Assembly: GCA_937949615.1 (NCBI GenBank)
Contig: CALEDQ010000008.1
Span: 827,556-891,555 of the forward strand
Direction of reading: 5' to 3'
Origin: an uncultured bacterium
GTDB lineage: Bacteria; Muiribacteriota; Ozemobacteria; Ozemobacterales; Ozemobacteraceae
Length of the DNA stretch: 64,000 nucleotides
Shown here: positions 9,990 through 31,777 of the stretch, in pieces
Numbering within the stretch: the stretch's first letter is position 1
How the letters are laid out: every line of letters starts with the position of its first letter
Position numbers and translations under genes: made by a program
Notes under the pieces: generated by a model
What the model saw: only the letters and a program-made list of their open reading frames with translations
What the model was told of the DNA's origin: nothing
Database searches by the model: none

Positions 9990-11372
9990 TCACTTCAGGA
10001 GCCGCATAAAGTTTTCGGCAAGGCTGACGAAAACAGTACCGGATGCATATTCAGTTTTGGAAATGGTTACCAGCAGAGTGCCGATGATCATGAAAACGAT
10101 AATGATCAGCTTGATCATATCCTGGCCTTTGAGAGAACCGACTTCACGGGGGTTCTTCGACAGGTAGGCAGAGGCGGCAAACAGTTCTTCACCGATCAGG
10201 GTGTAGTCGCAGGCGGCGACGAAGAACGGAATCTGCGAAGGTTCGGCAGTACCGGCGATCTGAATCGCGCCAACGGCGTTACCGGTTTCGGCGAGAATCA
10301 GAGATTCGGCGTAGAAAGTGCCGAGATAGAAACATGCGGCCGGTTTTTCGCGCATCATGATACCACCGACGCCGGCGACATAACCGAACTGGTCGTCAGT
10401 GAGGTAGTTGATACGGTCAGGTCTGAAAGCATCGGGGCGACCCTTTTCAAGGTAAGCCTGTTTAACGACTTCCTGGGCAACCGACATAACGAAAGACCTG
10501 GTCATCGGCGCATAAAGAGGTGTGTCGTATTCGGCGGTTTTTTTGGCGACATGACCCATGATGGTTACACCGGCGATGGTCTGAATGTCATCCATGTCCA
10601 TGATGCCGGGGATATAAAGAACGCCGCGACCCATTTCGGTGGCACGGCCAACGGCATCTTCAAGAGCCGAAAGGCCGCTGATTCTTCTGATGAAGAGTTC
10701 TTTACCTCTCTGGGCATGGAAAGTGTAATAAGTCACGAATGCCATCAGAGTAATGATGATCACGAGAACATTGGCGCGGTTCATGTCGAAGTAATACATT
10801 TCTTCGGCAGCAGGCGCCGGAGCGGCAGCCGGTTCGGCAACTGCAACCGCGACCGTAGGCTCGGTAGCGCTGGCAGTTTCTGAAGTTTTGGCGGCTTCAG
10901 TTGCAGGCTCAGTCTGGGCGGCCGGAGCAGCCGGGGTTTCTACTGCAGCGGCAGGAACTGCCACCGGAGCAACCACGGATGATTCAGCGGGAGCTGCTGG
11001 AGCTGCCGGTTCGGCAACTGCCTGGGCAGGCTGAGTTTCCGGAGCTGCCGGGGGAGCCGGCGGTTCAACCGGCTGAGTCTGCGCAGGAGCGGCATCAACG
11101 GCTGGAGCCGCGGGTGCAGTTTCTGCTGCAGCCGGTTCGGCGACCTGGGCAACAGGCTGTGTCTCATCTACAGCCGGGGCAACTGCTGGCTGTTCTTTAA
11201 CAGAATCAGCAGTAATTTCAGTCATGCCGGTATCGTCAACAGCAGAAGACTGAACAGGTGCGGCTGCCGGAATTTCTTCCTGCTGGGCCACAACAACCAA
11301 AGCCGATACCATACACAGGAAAAGAACCAGAAATGGCAGCAGTTTCCTGGGTGGTCGCCAGACAACGCTCAT
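9990..11372 (-). CDS. Secreted/membrane protein with an Ala/Pro/Glu-rich low-complexity region and a conserved C-terminal domain
   Basis: Start reassigned to the ATG at 11372 (MSVVWRPPRKLLPFLVLFLCMVSALVVVAQQ, a signal-peptide-like N-terminus). This ATG has a GGAGG Shine-Dalgarno 9 nt upstream. Then comes a ~170-aa PAAAP/ETAPAAP repeat-like region. A ~270-aa C-terminal domain with at least 2 TM segments follows. Confidence 0.7.
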   Translation of the reverse strand: MSVVWRPPRKLLPFLVLFLCMVSALVVVAQQEEIPAAAPVQSSAVDDTGMTEITADSVKEQPAVAPAVDETQPVAQVAEPAAAETAPAAPAVDAAPAQTQPVEPPAPPAAPETQPAQAVAEPAAPAAPAESSVVAPVAVPAAAVETPAAPAAQTEPATEAAKTSETASATEPTVAVAVAEPAAAPAPAAEEMYYFDMNRANVLVIIITLMAFVTYYTFHAQRGKELFIRRISGLSALEDAVGRATEMGRGVLYIPGIMDMDDIQTIAGVTIMGHVAKKTAEYDTPLYAPMTRSFVMSVAQEVVKQAYLEKGRPDAFRPDRINYLTDDQFGYVAGVGGIMMREKPAACFYLGTFYAESLILAETGNAVGAIQIAGTAEPSQIPFFVAACDYTLIGEELFAASAYLSKNPREVGSLKGQDMIKLIIIVFMIIGTLLVTISKTEYASGTVFVSLAENFMRLLK

Positions 11373-11415
11373 GGAAAGACCTCCAAAACGACAGAATTGC
11401 ATTTACAAGCTAGTG

Positions 11416-15516: not shown

Positions 15517-18321
15517 TCAGTTCCCCTGTGGGGCCTGAAAAATCACGTTCCCTGAAGGAGTAACCGATGTTGCCTCACCGGTGCCTGCGCCTGTTTCACC
15601 GCCCGGAGCAGTAAGTGGCTGCTGCAAAGGCATCTGGGGAGCGGGAGTCGGCATTTCCGCAGGCTGGCGATTATTCTTTCTGATCATTTCTTCGGCCCAT
15701 TGCCTGGTTTCGGTAGCGGTAAGTGCTGAGCCAGCGATTCTCGAAAGCATCGGCACAGCTTCGCCAGCTTTACCATTCTGAAGCAGTGACCTGCTCATAT
15801 TTACCTCGGCTTCGGTAATTGAAGCAACAAGCGAAATGGCGTGGCTTCTGATTTCCGGGGGGGCGGCCGGTGAGGCGGCAGCAGTTTCTAGGTGCTGACG
15901 TGCCCGGCCAAGCTGCTGCGAACGCACCAGAATCACGCCCAGGTCGCGATGGAACACGGGGTTGTCAGGATTCAGGTCGAGAGCTTTCAGCATCGCTTCC
16001 TCGGCCCGCTGCTGCAGACCGATGTTCGAGGCAGAAATGCCGACGATGTTCAGCATCGTCGGGTCGCGGTCCTGAACGAGTGCTGAGACAGAAGCCGCGT
16101 AGTTGTAGGCTTCTTCCCATTTCTGAGTGCCGGCTTTAGCGACTGCTAGCGAAGCTTTCGCCTGCAGTTCGAAAGACGGAAAGGCGAGAGCTTTTGTCAG
16201 GTATTTTTCGGCCTGAGCCAGCAGTTCGGTCTTTCTTTCTTCTGGAATAGCGTATCTGGTAATATCGAGAGCGATCTTGCCGGCATACATGTAATAAATC
16301 GAACGCGCCTCACCGGCGGTGAGTTCGAGACCGTGTATCGCTTCCTGGTAGGCTTCGACAAGTTTGTTCATCAGGTGATAGTAGATGTGCATTTTGCGGA
16401 AAACCACCGAATGATAGGTCGATCTGGCGTTGAAATTGATATTCTGCATCGATCTGTCGGCGTAAACCATGGCCCGTTGCGGATCCTGTTCCTGGGCGTA
16501 AATTGCTGAAAGTTTCAGGTAGGGATCACCAGGAAGCGGGTCGAGGACGATAGCATCGGTTAAAAGAGCTTTAGCCCGGTTGACCGCTTCTGCCTGGGTA
16601 TATTTCATATACATGTCAGCTTCGCGCACCATCTCATCGGCCTTCCAGCAGCGCATCTCATGAACGGTGTTGGTTATGCCGCCAAGCAGCGCAACCCCGG
16701 CGAATGCCAGAGCAACAGTCTGATCGATATTGATTTTACGACGCACGAGCGGCGAATTGAAAAAGTCGGTTTCGGTAAGCACCGGCACCAGACCGAGAAA
16801 GAGAACAGCGTAAACCGCAGTTTCAATACGATGGAACGGGAAATCCGGAATGGCGGCGAGCATCTGCGACACCATCGCGGCACCGAGCCCGATCAGCAGA
16901 ATATGTTCGCCACGCATTTCCCCGTCGGGGCGGCTGAAGATTTCGCGACGCAGAGCCAGTTGAATGCTGGCAAAAAAGCGATAAACGACAAACAGAAACA
17001 GCAGCATACCCACGACGCCCATCTCGGAAATAAGCTGCAGCCAGTCATTGTGCGCCTGACGGAAAGTGACCGCGGTAAAAGTCTCTTTGTTGTCTTCAGA
17101 GAAGGTTTTGCCTTCCTGCAGCGGGAAAAAGTGCTTGAAAGCCCCGAAACCACGCCCGAAAAGCGTATCGAAAACCGAGCCATCGAAGGCCTTGATAGTG
17201 CCATACCAGACCCACATGCGCTCATAGGTGTTGCTGGCAAGGCGATCGAGGGTAAAGGTGTATTTGATTTTGTCGAGAATGCTCTCAGACTGAATCGTCT
17301 TGACCGACAACGCAAAAAGACCGGCGAAAATCAGAACCACTGCGGTCAGGAAAAAGGGTGCATTCTTGCGCATCAGCTTCTGCTTGCGGTCGTTGAGAAA
17401 AAGCATGATGGCCATGTAGACAATACCACAGGCAATACCGATGAGGGCCGCGCGGCAACGGGTGATGTAAAGGCCGTAAAGAAGCCAGCCATACAGCCCG
17501 AGCGATATGACCTTCATTACCGTGCTGCGATAGTAAAAGAAGAAGGCCAGAGGCAGAAAGGCCGTGAACATCGCGAATGTGCCGAGATAGTTGCGGTTTC
17601 CGAAGGTCGAAACGACCGAACCCATGTCGTAGTTCCGGTTGGCAAGTTGAGGAAACAAAGGCAGATAGTAGCCATTCGGGTCGACCTGACCGTTGAGCAC
17701 TTCCTCTTTTACGTATCGGATGAGGCTCTGGGCATCGAACTTAAAATAGAAATTGTAGGTTTCCATGATACCGATCGTCGAGGTGGCGATGCCGGTAAAA
17801 ATGACGGCCCAGAGAATAAGTTCGACCTGCCAGCGACTGCGAACCACATTTGCCACCAGCGGGAAAAGCAGGATTATGCTAAAAACCCCGCGCAAATCGC
17901 GAATCGCCGACGGCACGTTGTAATTCCACATCACCGACAGGGCTGCAAAGCCGAAGAACAGCGTCAGCGGAAAATCGATACTGGTGCGAGCCAGAGCCGG
18001 CGTTCGCCGGGTAAACAGGCGGGCGCAGTAGATGCCGGCAAGAATGGCGATCGCGATTTTCGAGAAGAACTCTTTCGGAGTCAGAAAGTTTTCGGTCGTG
18101 GCACGGCTGTAGAGAAACGGCATCACCAGAACAACGAGAAGAATGCCAATATAGACAATCCAGTCAGTAACCGAGAGTTCGGCACGGGTCTCATTGTTGT
18201 TCTTGCGGAACAACCGGTAAAAAAAGTCTTCAAAAGCCTGCAGCCCCGATGGCTGACTGCCGACTACGCCTTCAGGCTTGTCGCTGCCGGCTGCCAAAGT
18301 TCTGACCCGTTTTTTTGCCAT
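15517..18321 (-). CDS. O-antigen ligase/PglL-family (Wzy_C) polytopic membrane protein fused to C-terminal TPR repeats
   Basis: The N-terminal ~560 aa have at least 10 TM segments. They carry the conserved ligase motifs R..AALIG, FGRGFGAF and QAHNDWLQLISEMGVVG (the H-N-x-x-L catalytic-region signature). The C-terminal ~350 aa contain multiple TPR-like repeats. The tail is Pro-rich (PAEMPTPAPQMPLQQPLTAPGGETGAG). Confidence 0.8.
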   Translation of the reverse strand: MAKKRVRTLAAGSDKPEGVVGSQPSGLQAFEDFFYRLFRKNNNETRAELSVTDWIVYIGILLVVLVMPFLYSRATTENFLTPKEFFSKIAIAILAGIYCARLFTRRTPALARTSIDFPLTLFFGFAALSVMWNYNVPSAIRDLRGVFSIILLFPLVANVVRSRWQVELILWAVIFTGIATSTIGIMETYNFYFKFDAQSLIRYVKEEVLNGQVDPNGYYLPLFPQLANRNYDMGSVVSTFGNRNYLGTFAMFTAFLPLAFFFYYRSTVMKVISLGLYGWLLYGLYITRCRAALIGIACGIVYMAIMLFLNDRKQKLMRKNAPFFLTAVVLIFAGLFALSVKTIQSESILDKIKYTFTLDRLASNTYERMWVWYGTIKAFDGSVFDTLFGRGFGAFKHFFPLQEGKTFSEDNKETFTAVTFRQAHNDWLQLISEMGVVGMLLFLFVVYRFFASIQLALRREIFSRPDGEMRGEHILLIGLGAAMVSQMLAAIPDFPFHRIETAVYAVLFLGLVPVLTETDFFNSPLVRRKINIDQTVALAFAGVALLGGITNTVHEMRCWKADEMVREADMYMKYTQAEAVNRAKALLTDAIVLDPLPGDPYLKLSAIYAQEQDPQRAMVYADRSMQNINFNARSTYHSVVFRKMHIYYHLMNKLVEAYQEAIHGLELTAGEARSIYYMYAGKIALDITRYAIPEERKTELLAQAEKYLTKALAFPSFELQAKASLAVAKAGTQKWEEAYNYAASVSALVQDRDPTMLNIVGISASNIGLQQRAEEAMLKALDLNPDNPVFHRDLGVILVRSQQLGRARQHLETAAASPAAPPEIRSHAISLVASITEAEVNMSRSLLQNGKAGEAVPMLSRIAGSALTATETRQWAEEMIRKNNRQPAEMPTPAPQMPLQQPLTAPGGETGAGTGEATSVTPSGNVIFQAPQGN

Positions 18322-18323
18322 GA

Positions 18324-19082
18324 TTAATTAGCCTTGATAACAACCGGATCAGCCGGATATTCGCCGGTCGAGCCGTTGGCCTTGCGGTCAGAATAATCTT
18401 TTATGCGGCTGTTGCCTGGAGAGACTCTGACAGTTGAAGATCCCGGATAAAATGCGGTGTCGCTTGCGAGATTGTTGAATTCAAGAAGAATTTCAGCAGC
18501 AGAAGCGGGAAAACTTGCCGGGCTGGCAAAAATACTGACTGCCACGTCTGAAGAAAACAAAAGATCACCGGCAGAGGGCGAAGCATTATCGTAAACAAGA
18601 GCGGTGTCAGACGCCGGAATAAAGCGTGAGAATTCAAGACGGAGCAGATCTTTCTGGCTTATCATACGGTTATTGTCGATGTCGACCCAGGTAGCGCGCT
18701 GCAGCGTCAACGGCGGTTTGTAATCAACGACGATATCATCGCGCTCGACACTGTTATCCGGGCCATTTGACTTAACCTGGCCCTTCAGCCAGTCGACTTC
18801 GTAATCGCGACCCCATGGGTCACGGGGCAGGTCCTGCAGGTAATGCCCGAGCAGTACGCGCAGGTCGGTTCCCTGGAATGGCCGTTCGGCCATTGTGTCA
18901 TGCTTAACCAGAGCCTCTTTGATGATATCAAGTTCGTGTTTGGCCTTGGCAAGACGCGACTGCCTTACATAATCCTGATAATAAGGCAGGGCAACGCCAA
19001 TCAGTATGGCGATGATGGTAACGACGATCAACAGTTCAATCAAAGAAAATGCTCGTTTATTCATGGTTGAAAATACTACCAT
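18324..19082 (-). CDS. Extended GspG-like pseudopilin (prepilin-type N-terminal cleavage/methylation domain), 252 aa
   Basis: The class-III leader plus hydrophobic helix is MNKRAFSLIELLIVVTIIAILIGVALPYYQDY. GspG core motifs DPWG and GPDNS are present. The shared linker is YKPPLTLQRATWVDIDNN...LRLEFSRF, followed by a variable C-terminal ~90 aa. The gene ends 2 nt from the start of the 934-aa ligase gene. Confidence 0.8.
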   Translation of the reverse strand: MVVFSTMNKRAFSLIELLIVVTIIAILIGVALPYYQDYVRQSRLAKAKHELDIIKEALVKHDTMAERPFQGTDLRVLLGHYLQDLPRDPWGRDYEVDWLKGQVKSNGPDNSVERDDIVVDYKPPLTLQRATWVDIDNNRMISQKDLLRLEFSRFIPASDTALVYDNASPSAGDLLFSSDVAVSIFASPASFPASAAEILLEFNNLASDTAFYPGSSTVRVSPGNSRIKDYSDRKANGSTGEYPADPVVIKAN

Positions 19083-19172
19083 ACCCTTTTTCTCCCAACA
19101 ACTAAAAGCTTAATACGAACACAAGACAGAGCTGCTCAACATTAGATCCACAGAAAATTTTGCGCCGGCTCT

Positions 19173-21140
19173 TCATTTCTCAGTCTGGTTCAGATTGATG
19201 CGGTTGGCGGCGATACCCATACCAAGAAGGCCCCAGAAAACCGGGGCAATGCCGACAATGCTGTCATTGAAAATTGCAGCGACCAGATACGCCACTATCG
19301 CAGCCATTATTCCAAGGCCTGCGATTTCAGATAAACTTTCAAATCGGCATTTCCAGTATATTTTTGCCGACTCCCGCAGATAAACCGCAAACAGTGCCAG
19401 AATCGCAAACAGCGAAATCATACCGGAGTTGATGGCAATCTGAAGATAAAGATTATGCGGCTTTTCGATCATGGTAAAGATACCACTCGGCCAGACCCGC
19501 AGTTTTCCAAGATAATCGTGATTGGGGAAATGGAAAGCGAAAGTATCAGGGCCATAGCCGACCAGCAAAGTCTTTTTGAGCATGGGCAGCGTTCGCGACC
19601 AGATATACCCGCGATTGCTGGCCAGGCCCTGACAACCGGCAAAACCAAATGCTTCGACTTCCTGAACATCGACCGGTTTACCAAACTGATTGATCAGCTT
19701 GAAGCCCCTATCAGTGTTCACCACATAAAAACTGACGCCGCCACGCCCGATTTCGAAAACATTGTATTCAGGCCAGGCATAGATAAGAAAGCCACGCATC
19801 TTTTTTTCAGGAAAAATCAGCAGATACTCTTTTGAAGTGAAGAAACCACGGCCGGTTCCTGAGGCAGTTTCGCTTCCGGTTGTCGTTACAGCGACAGGTG
19901 TTACCGCCTGATTTCCGGGCAGCGACTGGAAAATGCTCGTCGAGCTGCTCGCCAGTGCGGTAAAAGAAGCGAGCGGCGATTTATTGTCAGTTCTCAGATG
20001 CGGGTTAGGTAAAAGACTGTAGTTAACCAACTCCCCTTTGTGATCGTAGAACTCGACCTGCTCATTGTTCAGTCTGACTTCAGTTTTCAGGTCGTCGAAA
20101 ACGAACGAGAATGAATCGGTGGCCAGCTTGAGATCCTGAAAATTGCCAAAAAGATTGTTTCTGACCTCTACGGGTCTGGCGATAGAAGTTTCAAGAAATC
20201 TAGGCACTTCTTTTTCTTTCCAGGTAAAGGCATCCATGGCGAACGGCATCAGGGAGAAGCACAATAGAAGCAGAGCCAGCCGCCGCTTGCGCGCCCAGAC
20301 TTCGCGCCAGACGAAAGGAAGCAAGATTAAAGCTGCAATTACAGCACCGAGAAAACCGGCCCTCGATTTGGAGCCGAGCAGATTGCAGAAAATCAGCAGA
20401 TTGATCGGTATCAGGGCAAATTTCAGGCGGTTGTTAACGAGCAAAGCCAGCGCGAAAGTCAGGGCGAAAAGCATGGCCATGTAGCTGCCGGTGAAGTTGC
20501 CGTTGCCAAAGGTCAGAAAAATCGAATGCATACTGCCTTTCAGCTGGCTGAGATTGATGCCGGGCTGCAGCTGCCGCACTTTTTCAGGCACGATAAGCCA
20601 GTCAGCCATTTCAGAATACAAAAAATTGGCACCCAGAAACTGGGCAACGCCGGCAATCGCAAGAATTGTGGCTGAGACCAGCAGCATGCCCAGCAGAATT
20701 TTAAGCTCCCGCCGCGTTTCGGTCAGGTTGATAAAGAGAAAAATGATGCTCATGTAGCTGAGATGCACGAGCATTCCCTCGTGTCGGTGCGGATCGCCGA
20801 AGAACGCAATCTGCCAGTGGTCGGCAAAAATCGTCGAGACAATGATGAAAAAGCTGTATACAGCAAGAGGCCGATGATACCAATTTGCGGTTGTTACACG
20901 GTTACATCGATACCACGCCAGCGCTGTCGCCGCCAGAATACAGGTCCATACCGATTTATAGAAAGAAAACAGATCGCCCTGAATCGAAGGCCCATAAGTC
21001 TCAGCAGCGGCGCCTTCAAAGGTCACCAGCCGCATATAAACTATCATAGGCAGCAACCCGATGATCGCACCCATCAGCAGTAGCGGCAATGCCGAAACCG
21101 GTCTTGTCGGAACAGACTTTTCTTCTAAAGATTCGCTCAC
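19173..21140 (-). CDS. O-antigen ligase/PglL-like membrane protein with a ~200-aa periplasmic insert (655 aa)
   Basis: Polytopic. It carries GNGNFTG, SRAGFLGAVIAAL and GYGPDTF....EKPHNLYLQIAINSGMIS (GxGxxxF...H-N-x-Y-L-Q). It is a paralog of the 21232-23271 product. The start codon is GTG. Confidence 0.75.
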   Translation of the reverse strand: MSESLEEKSVPTRPVSALPLLLMGAIIGLLPMIVYMRLVTFEGAAAETYGPSIQGDLFSFYKSVWTCILAATALAWYRCNRVTTANWYHRPLAVYSFFIIVSTIFADHWQIAFFGDPHRHEGMLVHLSYMSIIFLFINLTETRRELKILLGMLLVSATILAIAGVAQFLGANFLYSEMADWLIVPEKVRQLQPGINLSQLKGSMHSIFLTFGNGNFTGSYMAMLFALTFALALLVNNRLKFALIPINLLIFCNLLGSKSRAGFLGAVIAALILLPFVWREVWARKRRLALLLLCFSLMPFAMDAFTWKEKEVPRFLETSIARPVEVRNNLFGNFQDLKLATDSFSFVFDDLKTEVRLNNEQVEFYDHKGELVNYSLLPNPHLRTDNKSPLASFTALASSSTSIFQSLPGNQAVTPVAVTTTGSETASGTGRGFFTSKEYLLIFPEKKMRGFLIYAWPEYNVFEIGRGGVSFYVVNTDRGFKLINQFGKPVDVQEVEAFGFAGCQGLASNRGYIWSRTLPMLKKTLLVGYGPDTFAFHFPNHDYLGKLRVWPSGIFTMIEKPHNLYLQIAINSGMISLFAILALFAVYLRESAKIYWKCRFESLSEIAGLGIMAAIVAYLVAAIFNDSIVGIAPVFWGLLGMGIAANRINLNQTEK

Positions 21141-21231
21141 AAAATGCCTCGCAGAAACGGTTGTAAAATCAATAGCATTTAATCAGCTGCGAGGCAAGCT
21201 TTGAATAGCAGCAGTAATTCACAGTGCAGCT

Positions 21232-23271
21232 CTATTGCACAACCGGCGGAGTAAGAGGTTCAGCCTTGTTTCTGGTCAGGTTTTCCATAACCATACGGTT
21301 TGTGGCAAGCCCCAACCCGAGCAAACCCCAGAAAACCGGAGCGGTTCCCACCATACTGTCATTGAAAAAACCATTAACCAGATAACTGAAAATTGCCACA
21401 AAAATTGCAGCACCAGAAACACTAAGATAATCATTCAAATCGATTCTAAAATATAGATAGGCCGAATTGAATAAATACCTTACCCAGAAAATCAATATTG
21501 CTATCAGCGCAATAATCCCATTGTTAAAAGCAATCTGCAGATAAAGACTGTGGGGCTTTTCGATCAGAAGGTTCATCCCCTGAATCCAGTGTCTAAGCTT
21601 GCCAAGATGATCATAATTCGGGAAATGGGCAATGAAGGTATCCGGACCATAACCCAGCAAAACAGCGTGCTTCAGCAAAGGCAATGTTCGAGACCAGATA
21701 TAGCCACGGCCACTTCCAAAACCCTCCATTCCCTTGAATCCCCATGATTCAACTTCTCTTATTACAGCCGGCTTCCCTCTATGATTCAACAATTTAAAAC
21801 CATTTTCACCATAAGACAGAAAAAAAGTCACGCCGCCCCGACCGATTCTTAGAATATTTCTGTGCGGCCAGATATTGATAATAAAACCGCGCAATCTGTT
21901 TTCAAGAAATTCTACCAGCTGTGGATGACCAAGAAAAAGCTCTTCGGAAGATATCACAGGAGCAGAAAAAGTAGCATTACCTGTTTTATTGGCAGATTCT
22001 TTATACTCTTCATGCTCTTCACCAAGTAGAAGCTTGGTTTCGTCAAGCATCATAAAGACAGGTTTTCCCAAAGAACTGCCTGAAGCTGATTGAGCAGCAA
22101 GAGAAGCGCTTGAAGTGGCAGACCCACGTTTTAACAGTTTAAAAGCTACAGGCGCTCCAGTCGAATCAAAAAACTCAAGCTCTCCGGCATCAGATTTGAT
22201 CTTTAATTTTACCTGGTCAAATATTACTTCCGCAGAATTTCCATTTAAAATCAAGTCTTTAAAGACTCCATAGCTCCCCAGCGAATAAATCAGAGGCCTG
22301 CCAAAAGAAGAAGAAAAAAATCGTGTCTGTCCATTTCGCAAAGAATGTGCATCCATAACGAATGGAATCAAAGAGAAACAGGCGATTATGATTAAAAGCG
22401 ATCCAATCTGATTTTTAAGTCTTTTCCGAAAAAGAAGAATACAAAAAACACCACCGAGCATACCCGCCAAAATCGCTGATCTGGCGACACAACCGAGCAT
22501 GACGATGTAAAGGACAAGGCAGAGTGCTGCAACACAAAACTTTTTCCAGCCTCGCAAGTTAAGAAAAAACGAAAACGCAAGCGGGAACAGCATCGATACA
22601 TAAATACCCGTATAATTACTGTTGCCAAAAGTGGCAAAAATCGTTTCTGTCGATTTTTGAATTTTTTCAAGTGCGTAAGCCGGCATTATTTCTTTAATAC
22701 GGCCTGGAATCAGTATCGACGTCCCAAGCTCTGAGAAAAAATAATCAAACCCAAAAAATTGCGAGGTTCCAACAATTGCAATTATTAAAGCCGATGCCAG
22801 CAAAGATTTCATTAAGAAATTAGATGTGGAAACATTTCGAACAATGTTAAGAAAAAGAAGCAGAATGGCCATGTAACACAAATTGACAATAAGCCCCTCG
22901 TGGCGCTCCGGGTCTCCCCACAAGGCCAGGCGCCAATGAACAGCAAACACCGTAGACAGTATCGCTGCGGTGGAATAAACAACCAGCAGGCGCGAGTAGA
23001 CGAAATTACCGCCTCGATGAAAAAGAAACCATAAAACAGAAGCTCCTGAAAGGAGAATTATCCAAACCATCTTGTACCAGGTAAAAAAATCAGTATTGAA
23101 ATCTTTGGCAAATATTTCCCTGGAAATCCCCTCGTAAGGAACAATACGAAGATATACAATCAACGGAACAAGGCTGATTATAGCAGCTAAAAGAGCCTTA
23201 ATTAAAAAAGTAGGCTCAGCTTCTCCCTGCGAAGAATCATCGCGCAAATTGGCATTTTCAAAATTTTGCAT
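21232..23271 (-). CDS. O-antigen ligase/PglL-like membrane protein with a periplasmic insert (679 aa)
   Basis: HWRLALWGDPERHEGLIVNL, GNSNYTG and GYGPDTFIAHF...EKPHSLYLQIAFNNGIIAL match the paralog at 19173-21140 and the ligase motif. The start lies 10 nt after the stop of the upstream pseudopilin gene. Confidence 0.75.
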   Translation of the reverse strand: MQNFENANLRDDSSQGEAEPTFLIKALLAAIISLVPLIVYLRIVPYEGISREIFAKDFNTDFFTWYKMVWIILLSGASVLWFLFHRGGNFVYSRLLVVYSTAAILSTVFAVHWRLALWGDPERHEGLIVNLCYMAILLLFLNIVRNVSTSNFLMKSLLASALIIAIVGTSQFFGFDYFFSELGTSILIPGRIKEIMPAYALEKIQKSTETIFATFGNSNYTGIYVSMLFPLAFSFFLNLRGWKKFCVAALCLVLYIVMLGCVARSAILAGMLGGVFCILLFRKRLKNQIGSLLIIIACFSLIPFVMDAHSLRNGQTRFFSSSFGRPLIYSLGSYGVFKDLILNGNSAEVIFDQVKLKIKSDAGELEFFDSTGAPVAFKLLKRGSATSSASLAAQSASGSSLGKPVFMMLDETKLLLGEEHEEYKESANKTGNATFSAPVISSEELFLGHPQLVEFLENRLRGFIINIWPHRNILRIGRGGVTFFLSYGENGFKLLNHRGKPAVIREVESWGFKGMEGFGSGRGYIWSRTLPLLKHAVLLGYGPDTFIAHFPNYDHLGKLRHWIQGMNLLIEKPHSLYLQIAFNNGIIALIAILIFWVRYLFNSAYLYFRIDLNDYLSVSGAAIFVAIFSYLVNGFFNDSMVGTAPVFWGLLGLGLATNRMVMENLTRNKAEPLTPPVVQ

Positions 23272-23281
23272 ATGATAAGAC

Positions 23282-23995
23282 TCAGAGAGGCTTTATGAGA
23301 ACCGGCGAATCATTTTTGCATGGTTTGCCATCGCCATCCACTATTTTACAGTCGCTTTTCACAGAAAGAGTGTCAACACCAACTAAGAATGGCGATGACG
23401 GCCCAAAGTCCAGTGTAACCTTGACCATCATATCATGTTCTCCATATTCGATTGATTGATAAGGATTACCCGGCGCGCCATTCGAATAAACGAAGTCATC
23501 GTCTGCAATCGGTGCGAGAACCGGCCCATCGACTGCCAGTCTACGAAGAGGCCGGGTAAACTTGACCTTTAATTTATCGCCAGTATCTACGATCTGAGAC
23601 TTATTTGAGTCTTCCCAGAAAACACGGGAAATCGCAAGAGGGGGGCGAAAATAAAGAGCTATTTCATCGCCGGTTCCGGCCAGCCTGTCAGGCCCGGTTG
23701 AATAACAGGTAGATGACGCCGGCGAAACCATATATGAAACACCCCATGGGTCTGCCATGCCTTTATTCAAATAAGATCCAATAAGCCGATGTAAACCATT
23801 CTCGGTATAAGACGTCTCCTGGTCAGATTCAAAACGCATCAAAGCATTTCTAATTTCTGTTAAGTCCTGCTTTGCTTTTGTCAGGCGGGCCTCTTCGACA
23901 TAATGCTGCACGAATGGAAGTACCGCTCCCACAAGAATGGCGATAATCGTGATTATAATAAGGAGTTCCAGCAGGGTGAAAGCATTTTTTTTCAT
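23282..23995 (-). CDS. Extended GspG-like pseudopilin, 237 aa
   Basis: MKKNAFTLLELLIIITIIAILVGAVLPFVQHYVEEARLTKAKQDL, then DPWG and TGPDRLAG. The shared linker is FRPPLAISRVFWEDSNKSQIVDTGDKLKVKFTRPL, followed by a variable tip. An A8 homopolymer sits in codons 2-4. Confidence 0.8.
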   Translation of the reverse strand: MKKNAFTLLELLIIITIIAILVGAVLPFVQHYVEEARLTKAKQDLTEIRNALMRFESDQETSYTENGLHRLIGSYLNKGMADPWGVSYMVSPASSTCYSTGPDRLAGTGDEIALYFRPPLAISRVFWEDSNKSQIVDTGDKLKVKFTRPLRRLAVDGPVLAPIADDDFVYSNGAPGNPYQSIEYGEHDMMVKVTLDFGPSSPFLVGVDTLSVKSDCKIVDGDGKPCKNDSPVLIKPL

Positions 23996-24003
23996 TGGTT
24001 CCG

Positions 24004-24040
24004 CCTAAAAAAATAAGCCCTCTGGCAAAGCCAGAGGGCA
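24004..24040 (-). terminator. Rho-independent terminator between two pseudopilin genes
   Basis: Stem gccctctggc (24017-24026) pairs with gccagagggc (24030-24039) around an aaa loop. On the minus strand it is followed by TTATTTTTTTT. It begins 8 nt past the TGA stop of the 24047-24784 gene. Confidence 0.65.
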
Positions 24041-24046
24041 ATTCCA

Positions 24047-24784
24047 TCACTTAAGAGGCTTGATCGAATATTCGTTTGCGTTACATTCGTTCGGAGTAGG
24101 AGTAACCTGATCGCGCAAACTGCCGTTTCTAACATAGTAAAGAGCATCGCGACCAGAGACGAAAGAAGTTGAAGGAATACCACCAAAGGTGAGAACTGCT
24201 TCACGTGCTCCAGTACCCATAGCACATGTAATTGTCACGCCGCCCATCATAGCTGCGATAGTGCCAGTTGTTCCATTGATATTAACGCCCCAGTCAGCAT
24301 TGTCCATACCGCCAACATCAGTGGTAGAAACCGGTCTTGAGAATCTTACGCGCAGAGAGTCGTTGGTTGTAACAGAAGCTGAGTTGTCGGCATCAACAAA
24401 GAACACCTTGGTAACGGCAAGAGGAGCTCTGAAATCAACATTGATGTCATCACCCTGACCATCATTGTCAACTCTGTTAGCGCCCCATGAGCGAATCTGA
24501 CAGTCATTGTTAATTACCTGATAAGGAACGCCCCATGGGTCTGTAATAGCCTTGCCAAGATAAGCACCGACGAGAGGAGTGATTGTGGCATCAGTGTATT
24601 CAGTGCCACGATCGAGTTCGTAGCGGGTAAGAGCGTTCTTGATTTCGTTCATATCGGCTTTTGCAGTTGCGATACGAGCGTCTTCGACATAATCCTGCAC
24701 ATAGGGGATCGCGGCGCCGGCGAGGATTGCGATGATCGTGATGACGATCAACAGTTCAATGAGAGTAAAACCTTTTCTAAGCAT
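24047..24784 (-). CDS. Extended GspG-like pseudopilin, 245 aa
   Basis: Start moved to the second ATG (MLRKGFTLIELLIVITIIAIL), which has an AGGAGG Shine-Dalgarno 8 nt upstream. DPWG is present, and the linker is FRAPLAVTKVFFVDADNSASVTTNDSLRVRFSRPV. The C-terminal tip is variable. Confidence 0.8.
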   Translation of the reverse strand: MLRKGFTLIELLIVITIIAILAGAAIPYVQDYVEDARIATAKADMNEIKNALTRYELDRGTEYTDATITPLVGAYLGKAITDPWGVPYQVINNDCQIRSWGANRVDNDGQGDDINVDFRAPLAVTKVFFVDADNSASVTTNDSLRVRFSRPVSTTDVGGMDNADWGVNINGTTGTIAAMMGGVTITCAMGTGAREAVLTFGGIPSTSFVSGRDALYYVRNGSLRDQVTPTPNECNANEYSIKPLK

Positions 24785-25004
24785 GTACATGCCCTCCTGT
24801 AAATTATGATCTTATCAGATCTGAATCACCCAACAGACTTTTGCAGTGGGTTTTGCCGCCCACCTACGGCGTCTTCACCAGTCATTCAGTTTTGGCAGCT
24901 GCAGCGACACAACACACCTCACTGCCCGGCACCTCCTGGTCTTCGAGATTCCGTTTTTCTGAAATCATTCAGATACTTCGTAAAACCAACCTGTCTAAGT
25001 TGTA

Positions 25005-25021
25005 AGCAAAAGCTGTACCAA
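25005..25021 (-). promoter_or_regulatory. Sigma-54-type promoter candidate (TGGTAC-N5-TTGCT) upstream of the 24047-24784 gene
   Basis: The minus strand reads TTGGTACAGCTTTTGCT. The GG (-24) and GC (-12) elements are separated by exactly 10 nt as in the TGGCAC-N5-TTGCW consensus. It lies 8 nt after the upstream gene stop and ~220 nt upstream of the ATG. Confidence 0.4.
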
Positions 25022-25028: not shown

Positions 25029-25775
25029 TCACTGCGGCAGAATTGTTACATTCTGACTGCTGAGACAGTAGTTTTTGTCTGGAGACTGGTCGAAGATCGT
25101 GTTATGACCGTCTGTTACCACAACATAGTCGCCACCAAGAGTGAAAGCATTGTTTGCAGCCACTTTATACACCAGAACCTTGCTTGAACCAACCAGAGTC
25201 GGACCGTATGTTGGCGAAACGCCAACCAGACCAGGCTGCAAAACCGTGACTCCATTGAGATAAAGGTTAAGACCAATGCTGGTAATCCCAACTCCACTTC
25301 CAAGCTTTCGGCTGAAAGCAAGGTGCAGCTCATCACTAACATTCTGGGTATCTACTGCTCCAGACTGGTTTTTGTCTACCCATTTGGCACTCACAAGAGC
25401 AAGCGGCGGCTGATAAGGCACGCTGATATTGTCATATTTGTCTTCATCAGCATCAGTATCAATACCAGAACGGTCGGGCCCGAGGGAAAAGACAGTCCCT
25501 CTCTCAGGAGAAACAACATAGGCAGAACCCCATGGGTCAATCGGGGATTTATTCAGGTAACGACCTGTAAGATCGCCGACGTCTTCCTTGGTGTATTCAC
25601 CTTCTCTGGTCTCATAAACTGCCAGAGCGCGGGCAACTTCTTCAAGGTCGGTCTTGGCCTTGGCAATACGTGATTCTTCAACGTAGTTCTGAACATACGG
25701 CAGTGCAGCCCCGGCCAGTACCGCGAGAATGGTTATGACAACCAGAAGCTCTATCAAAGTAAAACCTTTTTTCAT
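25029..25775 (-). CDS. Extended GspG-like pseudopilin, 248 aa (tandem paralog)
   Basis: MKKGFTLIELLVVITILAVLAGAALPYVQNYVEESRIAKAKTDLEE, then DPWG and LGPDRSG. The linker is YQPPLALVSAKWVDKNQSGAVDTQNVSDELHLAFSRKL. A GAAGGA Shine-Dalgarno is present. The N-terminal ~150 aa are near-identical to the 25800 paralog. Confidence 0.85.
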   Translation of the reverse strand: MKKGFTLIELLVVITILAVLAGAALPYVQNYVEESRIAKAKTDLEEVARALAVYETREGEYTKEDVGDLTGRYLNKSPIDPWGSAYVVSPERGTVFSLGPDRSGIDTDADEDKYDNISVPYQPPLALVSAKWVDKNQSGAVDTQNVSDELHLAFSRKLGSGVGITSIGLNLYLNGVTVLQPGLVGVSPTYGPTLVGSSKVLVYKVAANNAFTLGGDYVVVTDGHNTIFDQSPDKNYCLSSQNVTILPQ

Positions 25776-25799
25776 TTTAATCCTTCTTTCAAATTCAGT

Positions 25800-26546
25800 T
25801 TATTGTGGCAGAATGTAAACTTTCTGACTGCTCAAACAATAATTTTTCGGAGCTGCAACGTCAAAAATCTCGCCATGACTGTCGGTCACGATCAAATAAT
25901 CCTGGCCAACGGTAAAAACAGGGTTAGCGGCCACTTTGTATACAAGCACTTTGCTTGCACCGACAACTGTCGGCCCATAGGGGGTCACACCAACCACCAT
26001 CGGGCTCACGCCCGAGGACAATTTGGTAGCAGAGTTCAAGTAGATATGATCACCAAAATTTGTTATGGTAACAGCGCCCAGTTTGCGACTGAAGGTAAGA
26101 TGGAGCTCGTCGCTGACGTTCTGCGTGTCAACCGCACCCGACTGGTTTTTATCGACCCATTTGGCACTTACCAGGGCAAGCGGCGGCTGGTAAGGAACAT
26201 TGATATTATCGTAATTATTGGAATCACTGCCATCCAGGCGGTCAGGGCCTTTGGAATAAACAATGCCGTTGCTCGAGGAAACAATGTATTCTGAACCCCA
26301 CGGATCGATGGGCGATTTGTTCAGGTAACGACCAGTAAGATCTGAAACGGTAGTCTTGGTGTATTCGCCTTCACGAGTCTCGTAGATGGCGAGAGCACGG
26401 GCAATCTCTTCGAGGTCAGTTTTGGCCTTGGCAAGACGCGACTCGGCAACGTAGTTCTGCACGTAAGGCAGAGCAGCGCCGGCGAGAATTGCCAGAATGG
26501 TAATGACCACCAGCAGTTCAATAAGTGTGAAACCTCTTCTCAACAT
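25800..26546 (-). CDS. Extended GspG-like pseudopilin, 248 aa (tandem paralog)
   Basis: MLRRGFTLIELLVVITILAILAGAALPYVQNYVAESRLAKAKTDLEE, then DPWG and KGPDRLDG. The linker is identical to the 25029 paralog over YQPPLALVSAKWVDKNQSGAVDTQNVSDELHL. An AAGGAG Shine-Dalgarno is present. Confidence 0.85.
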   Translation of the reverse strand: MLRRGFTLIELLVVITILAILAGAALPYVQNYVAESRLAKAKTDLEEIARALAIYETREGEYTKTTVSDLTGRYLNKSPIDPWGSEYIVSSSNGIVYSKGPDRLDGSDSNNYDNINVPYQPPLALVSAKWVDKNQSGAVDTQNVSDELHLTFSRKLGAVTITNFGDHIYLNSATKLSSGVSPMVVGVTPYGPTVVGASKVLVYKVAANPVFTVGQDYLIVTDSHGEIFDVAAPKNYCLSSQKVYILPQ

Positions 26547-26573
26547 AAAAATGAAATCTCCTTTAGAGAATTG

Positions 26574-27311
26574 TTACCTGGATGACGTTATCGTCACGTT
26601 TTGACTGGTAATGCAATAATTGGCTGTACCCGGCGCCCGGTCACGAATGCCGGAGCCGTCATAAACCCACAGAGAGTCGCTGCCAGGGCCAAAAACGTTT
26701 TCGAGGCCATTATCAACGGCGACCGTCATGACATTACCAGATGAATCAAGCTTCAGAGAGCTCCAGTCCATGGCGGTGGTTATGCTGGGCGCGGTCCAGC
26801 GGAAATACTTGTGCGCCTCATCAGGCGAAACCAACGCCGGGCTGGTGGCCACAATCTTTCTTGAAAACATCAGCTGCAGATAATCACTGACATTCTGGGT
26901 ATCTACCGCCCCGGAATTATTGGCATCGACCCACTTTACAGAGACAAGAGCCAGCGGCGGCTGATAGCTCACGGTGATATCGTCGAGATTATTGTCAATA
27001 CGGTCCGGACCACTCGAAAAGACAACGCCGGCGCCGGTTGCGACCACATAAGACTTACCCCACGGGTCGATAGGCGATGAATTAAGGTAGCGGCCGGTCA
27101 ACAGCCGCAAAGTCGAGTCATTGTAAGTACCCTCTCTGGTTTCATAAACCGCCAGGGCTCTCTTGATCTCTTCAAGATCAGATTTTGCTTTCGCAATGCG
27201 GCTCTCAGCCACATAATTCTGCACATAGGGAAGCGCTGCTCCCACCAGAATGGCGAGAATCGTAATTACCACCAGCAGTTCGATCAGCGTAAAACCAGAT
27301 CTTTTAAGCAA
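26574..27311 (-). CDS. Extended GspG-like pseudopilin, 245 aa (tandem paralog; TTG start)
   Basis: The TTG start is preceded by GGAGGG at 4-nt spacing. The product is LKRSGFTLIELLVVITILAILVGAALPYVQNYVAESRIAKAKSDLEE with DPWG and SGPDRIDN. The linker is YQPPLALVSVKWVDANNSGAVDTQNVSDYLQLMFSRK. The C-terminal tip is divergent. Confidence 0.8.
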   Translation of the reverse strand: MLKRSGFTLIELLVVITILAILVGAALPYVQNYVAESRIAKAKSDLEEIKRALAVYETREGTYNDSTLRLLTGRYLNSSPIDPWGKSYVVATGAGVVFSSGPDRIDNNLDDITVSYQPPLALVSVKWVDANNSGAVDTQNVSDYLQLMFSRKIVATSPALVSPDEAHKYFRWTAPSITTAMDWSSLKLDSSGNVMTVAVDNGLENVFGPGSDSLWVYDGSGIRDRAPGTANYCITSQNVTITSSR

Positions 27312-28582: not shown

Positions 28583-30466
28583 TCAGTCAAGACCAACGGT
28601 TACAGAATCCTGCGATGGAACTTCTTCGTCGAGATAATCGACGTTGACCAGTCTCGGAGTGACCAGCATGATCATTTCAGAATTGTTGGTCTTGTTGTTA
28701 TTATGAGTCAAAAGTGTCTTCAGCAGAGGAACTTTATTGAGAAGCGACGGCGAGTTTTTCTGCTCAGAGCCCTGATGATTGATAAGACCGCCAAGCACTA
28801 CCGTTTCGCCGTTCTTGATGCGGACATAGGTCTGGGTATTTCTTTCTGAGCGATGGATCTGACCGTCTTCGTTGATATTGAGAACTGAGTCAACGGTGGT
28901 GTTGAGCTCCATGCTGATTTCGTTGTCACGAGTGATCTCGGGAGTAACTTCGAGTCTGATACCAACTTGAACGTCGCGGTATTCTTTATACACCTGGGGA
29001 GTATATCCCAGGTAACTGTTACTGGCGTTTTCATATCTGAAATACGGCACCGGAATCACTTCGCCGATATTGATCGAGGCTTTTTTACCATGCACAGCCC
29101 TGATCTTCGGGCTGGCAAGCACCTTCGCCTTGCTTTCCTGTTCAAGGAAATCGAGAGTGGCAGGCAGAGCGTAATTGCTGGGCAGACGACCGATATCGCC
29201 GACGTTGATCTTGTAGCCATCGAGCTTGATACCAAGCTGACGCAGGCTGGTGCGGTTGATTTCGACCAGTTTAACTTCGATAACCGCCTGTTTAACTTTC
29301 TCATCGACGCTTTCGATGATTTTTTCAATCAGGTTGAGGTTTTCGACCGTGTCATATACAGAGAGAGTATTGATTCTTTCGTTCAGCGAGAAGTTACCGG
29401 TGTCGATCTTTTCAGCGAGCGACTTGCTGCTGCTGATCATTTTAACGACTTCTTCAGGCTTGGCATTGATCAGTTTGAACGTGCGATACTGCTTCTTGCC
29501 AAATTCACTGGCGCTGTCCTTGGCCAGAATGACGAAGGTATTGTCGTTGTGAGGCTTCTTCACCAGTCCGTTGGTTTCGATCAGCAGATCGAGAAGCTCA
29601 TCGAGATTGAGGTTTTCGACATAAAAATTAACCTGTTTGTCTTCAACGCTTTCATGAATGATGAGGTTGATGTTCATCATTTTCGACAGAGTCTGCAGCG
29701 CGTCCTTAAGACTCAGATCGCGGAAAAGGAGCTCACGTGCCATTCTGCTGCTGTCAGTGCCGAGCGAAATAACCGTCAGATCGCGCCCCTTGAGGGTATA
29801 CTGAAAGTTTCTCTGCAGAAGCAGGTTTTTGAGGATTTCGCGCAAAGTCACATCCTGTGCATTAACGCTGAATTTCCCCTTAACGCCTGAATCGGCAAAA
29901 ATTCTCAGGTTGAATTTGACCGCCAGGGCGTTAAGAATAGTCATAAGATCTTCCTGATCGAAGCTCAAACTGACTCTCGCATCGAGCACGCTTGCTGAAC
30001 TTCCTGAAAAAGCGGCCATTTCAGCGGCGTTTCCGGCAGCAACCTTTGCAAGCGGTGAAGTTTCTAGAACCAGGTTTCGGTCGACCCTCCTTGGACTGAC
30101 CTTAAGTGGTTCATTAAAGACGATAATCGCCCTGACAACGTCGGGGCGTGTGCTTACCTGACTGATACGCATAAATTTCACCAGCGAATGTGGAGCGGGG
30201 ATAATAGTGCTGGCAGCGGCGAATTCCCAGTCATAAAAATCGGCGCGGACAACTTCCGGAGCTTCCATGGTTACGTTGAATTCCTTTACTTCATGTGCAG
30301 GAAACAGCACCATGCCATTGGCCCCATATCCGGCAATTTTCAGCTCGGTCAGCTTTTCAGCTGCTCCTGCCGGCATACTTATAATAACCGCCAGCAGAAA
30401 AACCAGAGCCAGCCGCACATTACAGCACGTGTGCCGCAGGTCTCTGCAGTTTTTTAGAAACTTCAT
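28583..30466 (-). CDS. Secretin (PilQ/GspD family) with N-terminal AMIN/STN-like domains
   Basis: Start set at the ATG with an AAGGAG Shine-Dalgarno (MKFLKNCRDL..., signal peptide). The central region has N0/N1-like domains. The C-terminal secretin domain includes ETVVLGGLINHQ...KVPLLKTLL...MIMLVTPRLV. Confidence 0.85.
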   Translation of the reverse strand: MKFLKNCRDLRHTCCNVRLALVFLLAVIISMPAGAAEKLTELKIAGYGANGMVLFPAHEVKEFNVTMEAPEVVRADFYDWEFAAASTIIPAPHSLVKFMRISQVSTRPDVVRAIIVFNEPLKVSPRRVDRNLVLETSPLAKVAAGNAAEMAAFSGSSASVLDARVSLSFDQEDLMTILNALAVKFNLRIFADSGVKGKFSVNAQDVTLREILKNLLLQRNFQYTLKGRDLTVISLGTDSSRMARELLFRDLSLKDALQTLSKMMNINLIIHESVEDKQVNFYVENLNLDELLDLLIETNGLVKKPHNDNTFVILAKDSASEFGKKQYRTFKLINAKPEEVVKMISSSKSLAEKIDTGNFSLNERINTLSVYDTVENLNLIEKIIESVDEKVKQAVIEVKLVEINRTSLRQLGIKLDGYKINVGDIGRLPSNYALPATLDFLEQESKAKVLASPKIRAVHGKKASINIGEVIPVPYFRYENASNSYLGYTPQVYKEYRDVQVGIRLEVTPEITRDNEISMELNTTVDSVLNINEDGQIHRSERNTQTYVRIKNGETVVLGGLINHQGSEQKNSPSLLNKVPLLKTLLTHNNNKTNNSEMIMLVTPRLVNVDYLDEEVPSQDSVTVGLD

Positions 30467-30567
30467 AAGCCGCTCCTTAATCAAATGATCAATTGCAAAA
30501 AAATTAATATCCCCGTTACATCATTCGACATCTGCAAAACAAAACTTTATAGCAAATTAAAAATTTG

Positions 30568-30616: not shown

Positions 30617-31777
30617 TTACATGGCCGGCTGAGTTGCGCCTGTTGAACCGCCCGAAACGACACGGGCCATACGAAAAATCGGCAGATACATCGCCAGTAC
30701 GATAACACCGACAATAGCACCAATAACAACAATGAAAGCCGGCTCAACCAGTGCCGTGATCTGATCGATCAAGAAATTGATTTCGTCTTCGTAAAATTCA
30801 GCAACCTTCTCCAACATTTCATCGAGATTACCAGATTCTTCACCGACCTCGATCATCTGAGTCGACAGCTCAGGCATGATCTCGACCTTGGCCAGAGCCC
30901 TCGATATCGGAATACCACCCTCAACTTCTTTAACAACGTCGTCGAGAGATTCCTGGATAATCATATTTTCAACGGCTTCATTACTGATCTTCATCGCAGA
31001 AATAATATTGATGCCCGACTCGAAAAGCGTCGCCAGGTTTCTGGCATAAAGAGCAATGATGTATTTCTGCAACAGACCTCCGAAAACAGGCAACTTCAGC
31101 TTGACCCAGTCGAAAAAGTGACGCCCGGAACGGGTCTGATCGATCTGAAAAAGAATGATAAAAAAAGCCAGGCCGGCAGCAAAAAGCAGCAGAAGATTGT
31201 TTCCGATAAAACCTGAAAAATTGATCACCTGCTGGGTCAGCCAGGGCAGTTCTTGATTGAACTGGGTAAACAGATTGGCAAACTGCGGAATGACGAACAG
31301 CATCAGGAACATGACGACCAGAGCTGCCACCGCAGAAATGATCAACGGATAGGTCATCGCCCCGATAACGCGGCGACGAATAGATATCTGCCGTTCCATA
31401 AGCTTGGTCAGGCGGTCGAGGACCATGACCAGTCGACCAGACTCTTCGCCAACCTTTATCAGATTCGAATAGAGCATGCCGAAAATATCATCGTGCTTTT
31501 TAAAACACATATGCAGAGGCATGCCGCCTTCTACTTCGGTCTTGGAATCCCAAATGATTTTTCTGAAGCGCCAGGTCTTCATCTGACGCGAAAGGGTGCC
31601 CAGTGACCGCAAAACCGAAATACCGGCACGGGAAAGGGTAGTGAAATATTTAGTGAACAACAGGCGCTCACTCAGCCCGATATTACCGTAAAACGGGTTC
31701 AGATATGACAGAACCGGCCGGTTCTCTTCTCCTGGACCCTCTTGCCTGACATCTTCATTAGTGTTTAAATCTACCAT
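30617..31777 (-). CDS. gspF: Type II secretion / type IV pilus platform protein GspF/PilC family
   Basis: 386 aa with the typical duplicated GspF cytoplasmic domains (LLFTKYFTTLSRAGISVLRSLGTLS ... LYARNLATLFESGINIISAMKI) and three TM segments. Confidence 0.85.
   Translation of the reverse strand: MVDLNTNEDVRQEGPGEENRPVLSYLNPFYGNIGLSERLLFTKYFTTLSRAGISVLRSLGTLSRQMKTWRFRKIIWDSKTEVEGGMPLHMCFKKHDDIFGMLYSNLIKVGEESGRLVMVLDRLTKLMERQISIRRRVIGAMTYPLIISAVAALVVMFLMLFVIPQFANLFTQFNQELPWLTQQVINFSGFIGNNLLLLFAAGLAFFIILFQIDQTRSGRHFFDWVKLKLPVFGGLLQKYIIALYARNLATLFESGINIISAMKISNEAVENMIIQESLDDVVKEVEGGIPISRALAKVEIMPELSTQMIEVGEESGNLDEMLEKVAEFYEDEINFLIDQITALVEPAFIVVIGAIVGVIVLAMYLPIFRMARVVSGGSTGATQPAM

Follow-up and report, generated by a model that had tools for sequence, protein, structure and literature searches.

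Pilin-linked Wzy_C membrane enzymes with a putative beta-repeat ectodomain: candidate protein O-oligosaccharyltransferases in an Ozemobacteraceae filament operon

O-linking oligosaccharyltransferases (O-OTases) are key to bacterial protein glycosylation and to the making of bioconjugate vaccines. To our knowledge only four O-OTase families have been characterised, PglL, PglS, TfpO and TfpM, and all are from Proteobacteria. Previous work showed that adjacency to a pilin gene is a genomic signature of O-OTases, seen for 21 of 31 PglL homologues (PMC3643930) and likewise for TfpO and TfpM (PMC9829042). Other work described WsaB and WsfB as Wzy_C protein ligases of S-layer glycosylation clusters (PMC2943079), and showed that Orf19 of Clostridium difficile Ox247 is genetically required for glycosylation of SlpA Thr-38 (PMC6254364). 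Here we describe three Wzy_C membrane proteins, labelled enzymes A, B and C, encoded in a 64-kb stretch of contig CALEDQ010000008.1 from an uncultured Ozemobacteraceae bacterium; this whole stretch is called the window, L-numbers denote homologous loci, and P-numbers denote database proteins. The three open reading frames (ORFs) lie on the minus strand at the coordinates given in an original prediction for this DNA, and the locus is a pilin cluster and not a lipopolysaccharide (LPS) locus, as that prediction held. By analogy with the systems above, we consider it somewhat probable that the enzymes are protein O-OTases acting on pilins at internal sites.

All three proteins pass the Pfam Wzy_C (PF04932) gathering cut-off of 31.7 bits (Table 1) and have the WaaL-like transmembrane fold of the Wzy_C superfamily, with WaaL as their best structural match. 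Their assignment to the WaaL/PglL superfamily, already part of the original prediction, is thus confirmed, and a profile search of solved structures returned WaaL at E 0.48, a spurious CD9 match and nothing else. The predicted catalytic residues correspond across the two types of enzyme: A R260 is equivalent to C R290, A R510 to C R368, and A H562 both to C H424 and to the His in the Cupriavidus WaaL motif AHN. The corresponding residues are functionally required in E. coli WaaL (R215, R288 and H338) and in Neisseria PglL (R224, R298 and H349) (PMC3643930), the His also by the evidence of PMC9829042. Among 103 distinct members of the A/B family, R510, G511, G528, G530, K560, H562 and D626 (A numbering) are invariant, and R260 is kept in 88 of 102; in the C family, all 28 members compared have R290, R368 and H424. 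Hence the motif His and Arg, on whose conservation in a proper alignment the earlier assignment depended, are conserved in both families.

Enzymes A and B align end to end with 38% identity (E 3e-158) and are paralogues, and the motifs previously quoted for the pair, GDPxRHEG, TFGNxNxTG, GYGPDTF and EKPHxLYLQIA, are all present in the alignment, as is RGYIWSR. The claim of three paralogous copies is not supported for C, which belongs to a separate, remotely related family. BLASTP of C against A and B gave only E 5e-4 to 1e-3, and profile-profile comparison of the A and C families gave a probability of 97% and E 4e-11 over A 61-277 and C 87-308, that is, over the N-terminal six helices. The first catalytic spacing in A is 250 residues, owing to an insert of about 197 residues, and C has the canonical spacings of 79 and 56.

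The insert of A lies between a transmembrane helix ending near residue 308 and the LASNRGYIW helix; the corresponding stretch of C is about 20 residues long. In both A and B the Pfam Wzy_C match is broken into two stretches around it. An AF2 model of the A insert (pLDDT 83) has two groups of beta strands with a disordered loop between them. The insert is predicted to be periplasmic, and so to share a face of the membrane with the catalytic Arg and His, because KRR 284-286 is cytoplasmic by hydropathy and the positive-inside rule. An insert of about 200 aa with a periplasmic location, as first predicted for two of the enzymes, is therefore borne out by the alignment, the split Pfam match and the predicted topology. 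The insert gave no match to any solved fold. When its profile was searched against 1.84 billion proteins, 79 cluster representatives were matched, nearly all of them Wzy_C proteins of 570-690 aa with the match at the same position. In Bacillota members the insert module is matched twice, and in a few long members (P0140, 844 aa; P0143, 910 aa; P0155, 984 aa) it is matched four to six times. Because matches to the insert profile are confined to the family, and relatives have two to six module matches, the insert appears from these comparisons to be a family-restricted beta-repeat ectodomain of variable copy number. Internal duplication within the A insert itself is weakly supported (hhalign E 1e-3, probability 21%), and the repeat nature rests on the relatives.

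Enzyme C carries a different addition. Its C-terminal domain (residues 555-934) is predicted to be periplasmic by hydropathy and positive-inside count. Of the roughly 350 aa of tetratricopeptide repeats (TPR) originally predicted, those at residues 764-822 were detected directly, and it is the many TPR matches in homologues that make the full extent beyond them plausible. C homologues came from Riflebacteria/Ozemobacteraceae in 81 of 81 cases. The match of C to the IctB family model TIGR00947, at 36.9 bits, is below the equivalog cut-off of 366.4. An antisense ORF of 555 aa (16660-18327, plus strand) is contained wholly in gene C; given the strong conservation of C among its 81 homologues, this is a shadow ORF. 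The database protein P0066 (1259 aa, with N_methyl, Wzy_C and TPR matches) was considered as a prepilin-enzyme fusion and rejected, as it has an Arg-rich nonsense junction in place of the pilin C-terminus; the apparent fusion is most probably an artefact, by frameshift or read-through, at the 2 nt that separate the two genes.

The gene order around the enzymes is conserved. The window is Candidatus Riflebacteria DNA, and the best genomic match, at 86% identity, is a Candidatus Riflebacteria metagenome-assembled genome (MAG). In every Riflebacteria-type locus recovered (L002-L009, L034 and L035) the enzymes come directly after an array of orthologous prepilins of about 245 aa, and this linkage is kept though A homologues drop to 39% identity. 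The full order of six prepilins, one to three insert-bearing enzymes, a prepilin and the TPR enzyme is found in the window, L003, L006, L007 and L009, and an orthologue of the prepilin next to C, ending in ANG(S/T)xGE..IKA(N/D), is present at every C-carrying locus. Co-oriented pilin adjacency outside an LPS locus, which marks the PglL family, is therefore present in all Riflebacteria loci recovered. The earlier claim that each enzyme adjoins a prepilin stands insofar as prepilin genes lie on either side of the enzymes, but six prepilins are followed by B, A, a further prepilin and C, which does not make three enzyme-pilin pairs. Nor is it supported that every enzyme is paired with a pseudopilin of its own, given seven or eight prepilins for three enzymes and a number of insert-bearing copies that ranges from one (L006) to three (L004) among loci whose prepilin arrays are similar. 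L004 and L008 have, directly after the enzymes, genes for a Wzx-like flippase and for sugar modification. Several contigs with Riflebacteria-type pilin and enzyme genes, L034/L002 (DYKG01000013.1), L035 (DYEX01000131.1) and L015, are labelled 'Candidatus Methylomirabilis sp.' and 'Desulfovirgula sp.', which may reflect mis-binning or lateral transfer. A search of the literature on Riflebacteria and pili found nothing relevant.

From these data the following scheme can be proposed. The region is the distal part of a type IV filament operon (type IV pilus- or type II secretion system-like) in a Riflebacteria genome, and A, B and C are inner-membrane enzymes of the WaaL/PglL (Wzy_C) type. They would take, at the periplasmic face, an undecaprenyl-pyrophosphate-linked glycan flipped by Wzx, and the genes after the enzymes in L004 and L008 may, by analogy, serve the supply of this donor. 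The glycan would then be moved en bloc to Ser or Thr (or Tyr) residues of the co-encoded prepilins, before or during filament assembly, with chemistry by the Arg-Arg-His site (R260, R510 and H562 of A; R290, R368 and H424 of C). None of about 45 Riflebacteria pilins inspected, from the window and nine related loci, ends in Ser or Thr, and the acceptor sites would for that reason be internal, as with PglL and PglS. The beta-repeat ectodomain of A and B, placed directly before the catalytic loop, may be an acceptor-recognition or positioning module, and the periplasmic TPR domain of C may have the same role.

The A/B family extends well beyond Riflebacteria. Loci of the family were searched for in a collection with one genome per species and at least 543 were confirmed, overwhelmingly in Bacillota, in Clostridium, Desulfosporosinus, Sedimentibacter, Tissierellales, Peptococcaceae and even Izemoplasmataceae. 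A search seeded with the Clostridium member P0023 gave 779 protein clusters; no characterised member (e.g., C. difficile Orf19 or WsaB) was found in it, and the listed names were all the generic 'O-antigen ligase family protein'. Insert-bearing enzymes, first thought unusual, are by these counts common in Bacillota. Cultured organisms that carry them include Clostridium magnum DSM 2767, C. tepidiprofundi DSM 19306, Desulfosporosinus spp. and Sedimentibacter acidaminivorans. At Bacillota loci a gene for a 900-1000-aa SLH/Big_5 surface protein is often immediately upstream (at least seven loci). A Pfam census of 115 neighbours at 29 loci found mostly NTP_transferase, RmlD, epimerases, PglF-like dehydratases, GT2, SLH, Big_5 and CWB2, with RmlA also enriched. 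In Clostridium sp. JN-1 (L001) the family gene is the first of a cluster that also encodes Wzz, glycosyltransferases and another, separate Wzy_C protein of canonical size (429 aa). By analogy of gene content, the Bacillota neighbourhood resembles S-layer glycosylation clusters. Prepilins are usually absent within 10 kb of the Bacillota members; the exceptions are L056, a Syntrophomonadaceae MAG in which a true prepilin lies directly upstream of the family member, and possibly L079. A prepilin pattern match upstream of L030 was a false positive within a GDP-mannose dehydratase fragment. Eleven of the 115 neighbour proteins match Pfam OEP (TolC-like outer membrane efflux), e.g., L001 6473-8761, which is unexpected in monoderm hosts. 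At L080 and L083 the insert-bearing family occurs in MAGs labelled Izemoplasmataceae/Izimaplasma. This group is wall-less, which rules out a classical peptidoglycan-bound S-layer as the acceptor there.

Such a distribution is hard to reconcile with A, B and C being classical WaaL ligases that join O-antigen to lipid A-core and sit in a pilin operon by coincidence. Monoderm Bacillota have no lipid A-core, yet the A/B family is abundant in them and reaches even the Izemoplasmataceae. LPS core genes were not found among the window ORFs scanned, and a pilin operon with three ligases, in a gene order kept throughout a phylum, does not fit the WaaL pattern. The best structural match is nevertheless WaaL, the source databases apply the label 'O-antigen ligase family', and Riflebacteria are diderm, the window encoding both a secretin and a Wza-like protein. 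Weighing these points, we regard the WaaL explanation as highly improbable. A protein O-OTase is favoured over it because an abundant polymerising surface protein is encoded just upstream in both the Riflebacteria and the Bacillota contexts, and because most hosts are without lipid A-core.

The original prediction had offered oligosaccharyltransferases or polymerases; the former is the better supported, by the conserved synteny and the Bacillota S-layer context, and the latter is the main rival. In that rival account A and B, and perhaps C, would be Wzy-type repeat-unit polymerases or polysaccharide-acceptor ligases of a Wzx/Wzy-dependent pathway, with the operon merely shared with pilus genes or with the polysaccharide coupled to the filament. 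The Wzy_C domain also covers polymerases, and of tandem paralogues one could polymerise and the other transfer. The Wza-like (Poly_export) gene is conserved in the pilus cluster, a Wzz/GNVR gene is present in the window, the L001 family member adjoins Wzz, and the Wzx-like genes of L004 and L008 would suit such a pathway as well. A match of B to the 'oligosaccharide repeat unit polymerase' model TIGR04370 (E 2.3e-5) scores 23.6 bits, far under the cut-off of 40, and A and C gave no match to this model. The His of the KPH/AHN motif of WaaL and PglL is invariant in the A/B and C families, and it is needed in WaaL and in O-OTases (PMC3643930, PMC9829042). In L001 a separate Wzy_C gene of canonical size is already present, leaving the polymerase role to that gene. 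The tight, ancient linkage to pilin genes, or in Bacillota to S-layer-type genes, is not expected of polymerases. On this evidence we think it unlikely that the enzymes are polymerases.

Several observations nevertheless weigh against a protein O-OTase role, among them the TIGR04370 match of B, the conserved Wza-like gene and the Wzz-type gene 11 kb away. Sequence alone cannot separate WaaL, Wzy and O-OTases (PMC3643930), and neither PglL_A (PF15864) nor Wzy_C_2 matched A, B or C in Pfam searches even at E 10. The window ORFs scanned include no gene for a glycosyltransferase or an initiating transferase. Most Bacillota loci are without a pilin gene within 10 kb, and an obvious S-layer-type neighbour lies within two genes in about one-third to one-half of them. 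Further, the presence of two or three near-tandem paralogues plus C is not accounted for. The original prediction had stated that waa and wb glycosyltransferase genes were lacking at the locus. A general absence of polysaccharide genes is not supported: the window has Wzz-type and Wza-type genes, and two related loci have the Wzx-like and sugar-modifying genes described above.

A further alternative is that the proteins are mainly structural or assembly factors of the filament machine, with the TPR of C acting like PilF/PilW, the ectodomains acting as scaffolds, and glycan transfer lost or secondary. The TPR region of C is weakly like PilW/PilF (TIGR02521, E 2.7e-8; 33.6 bits, where the cut-off is 154). 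The machine is also unusual: it has a platform protein, a secretin and eight prepilins, yet the window ORFs scanned include neither a PilB/GspE-type ATPase nor a prepilin peptidase. Against this explanation, the catalytic Arg and His are strictly kept even between very distant relatives, which speaks for retained enzymatic activity, and most Bacillota loci have the family without any pilus genes. It seems to us very improbable.

Returning to the proposal of protein O-OTases, we suggest more tentatively that A and B represent a distinct, uncharacterised multi-phylum class. In this class the family-restricted ectodomain before the catalytic loop, with two to at least six beta-repeat modules, might recognise or position the folded subunits of surface polymers: S-layer proteins in Bacillota and pilins in Riflebacteria. 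In Riflebacteria the insert-bearing enzymes might join the TPR-bearing C to decorate a multi-pilin filament with glycan.

The remainder of the locus is listed in Table 1. In the direction of transcription the order is the Wza-like gene, the 140-aa prepilin, the platform protein, the secretin, six prepilins, B, A, the seventh long prepilin and C; an unrelated peptide ABC transporter comes after enzyme C. The six array prepilins (about 245 aa) have the N_methyl motif, a GspG-like head that scores under the equivalog cut-off, and a common C-terminal beta domain of about 130 aa. Three of them, in tandem at 25029-27311, are closely similar, which suggests recent duplication, and the matching positions are likewise duplicated in L005, L007, L008 and L009. 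The 247-aa prepilin that follows them is set apart from the distal unit by a terminator-like hairpin. In the 238-nt gap upstream of this gene is a sigma-54-like -24/-12 element, TGGTAC-N5-TTGC, at 25006-25020 on the minus strand, but a scan of the window for sigma-54 promoters found 7 matches where 5.8 were expected, no significant excess. The 247-aa prepilin may be a major, separately expressed subunit. The rpoN gene is in the window at 33331-34785. Intergenic gaps in the distal part of the cluster are 10, 91, 90 and 2 nt, and over 20000-24000, which takes in A, B and the adjacent pilin gene, the GC content is 0.43-0.47 against 0.50-0.55 in the flanks. The Wza-like gene overlaps the gene for the 140-aa prepilin and precedes the T2SSF gene, an order repeated in a second Riflebacteria contig (L005); a polysaccharide-export-type protein within a pilus operon is unusual. 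The Wzz/GNVR gene adjoins a gene for a 373-aa protein with weak, sub-cut-off Pfam matches (Biotin_lipoyl, RnfC_N). Downstream of C, a DUF6754 membrane protein (9990-11402, minus strand) and the peptide ABC transporter keep their position in L003 (928-2115), with about 60% identity.

Table 1. Features of the filament locus and its surroundings, in order of transcription (positions are those of the window)
Feature	Positions	Strand	Evidence and remarks
Wza-like Poly_export protein with CarboxypepD_reg domain	32226-33086	-	Pfam; same position in L005 (199-1059)
Small prepilin, 140 aa	31811-32233	-	N_methyl E 2.4e-8
PilC/GspF-like platform protein	30617-31777	-	T2SSF E 4.6e-57
PilQ/GspD-like secretin	28583-30484	-	Pfam Secretin E 1.8e-35; TIGR02515 183.6 bits, under its cut-off
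First prepilin of the array, 252 aa	27688-28446	-	Pfam
Three paralogous tandem prepilins	26574-27311, 25800-26546, 25029-25775	-	ORF list, Pfam
Prepilin, 247 aa, candidate major subunit	24047-24790	-	Pfam; strong terminator-like hairpin directly after
Terminator-like hairpin	24017-24039	-	Sequence; 10-bp stem with 8 GC pairs, then a T run
Prepilin, 237 aa	23282-23995	-	N_methyl and T2SSG matches; ends 10 nt upstream of the B start
Enzyme B, 679 aa, WaaL-fold (Wzy_C) membrane protein with insert	21232-23271	-	Pfam Wzy_C 35.2 bits, in two stretches; predicted catalytic R264, R522, H574
Insert of B, residues ~313-517	21721-22335	-	Aligned to the A insert; beta-rich ectodomain with low-complexity linker
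Enzyme A, 655 aa, WaaL-fold (Wzy_C) membrane protein with insert	19173-21140	-	Pfam Wzy_C 43.4 bits; predicted catalytic R260, R510 (and R516), H562
Insert of A, residues 309-505	19626-20216	-	Beta modules 334-378 and 439-483 flanking a disordered Ser/Thr/Ala-rich loop 381-432; predicted periplasmic
Prepilin, 252 aa	18324-19082	-	N_methyl E 4.4e-7; stop 2 nt upstream of the C start
Enzyme C, 934 aa, Wzy_C core of canonical spacing (R290, R368, H424), four more transmembrane helices, TPR-containing C-terminal domain, Pro-rich tail	15517-18321	-	Wzy_C 47.6 bits and TPR matches
TPR part of C detected directly by Pfam, residues 764-822	15856-16032	-	TPR_17 E 1.7e-5, TPR_19 E 3e-4
Wzz/GNVR polysaccharide co-polymerase gene	2998-4221	-	About 11 kb downstream of the enzymes

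What is new here is best described as a set of Wzy_C transferases linked to pilins, whose ectodomain had not been described before and whose family extends, unexpectedly, to S-layer loci of Gram-positive bacteria. If the proposed function is correct, a widespread ectodomain-bearing family, linked to pilins in one phylum and to S-layers in another, would extend the known O-OTase repertoire. It would also give a pointer to the long-missing structural basis of acceptor recognition, and would allow glycosylated pili and S-layers of uncultured lineages to be recognised from their genomes. If the enzymes are polymerases instead, the locus would be an ordinary surface-polysaccharide module that chances to sit in a pilus operon.

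Compared with described systems, the three enzymes are most like PglL of Neisseria and PglS of Acinetobacter in having a Wzy_C domain with an Arg-Arg-His site, pilin-adjacent genes and, as proposed for A, B and C, internal acceptor sites (PMC3643930, PMC9829042). PglL and PglS (550-620 aa) are also larger than WaaL and have additional periplasmic sequence, and C-terminal TPR motifs like that of C were described for the O-OTases WsfB and PglL (PMC2943079). Unlike PglL and PglS, A and B have as their extra domain a beta-repeat insert before the catalytic loop and not a C-terminal extension, and the window has three enzymes in one operon with seven or eight long (about 245 aa) GspG-like pilins, in another phylum. 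TfpO (PilO) and TfpM share with the enzymes a gene directly downstream of a pilin gene and co-oriented with it, and a Wzy_C domain with an essential His (PMC9829042). They are proteins of 420-470 aa that glycosylate a C-terminal Ser or Thr (PMC9829042), whereas A, B and C have 655, 679 and 934 aa and their pilins have other C-termini. Given these differences in size and pilin C-terminus, and the lack of a PglL_A match, A, B and C appear by sequence to lie outside the characterised O-OTase families. They differ from WaaL of Cupriavidus metallidurans (PDB 7tpg/7tpj; about 400 aa) in the insert of A and B and the TPR of C, and the WaaL acceptor, lipid A-core, is absent from most organisms with the A/B family. 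In the clusters of the S-layer O-OTases WsaB, WsfB and Orf19, a Wzy_C gene lies beside an S-layer protein gene and rhamnose or nucleotide-sugar genes. The Bacillota relatives of A and B resemble these in gene context, being found in clusters with an S-layer-type protein and nucleotide-sugar and glycosyltransferase genes, and in the window the place of the S-layer protein gene is taken by pilin genes.

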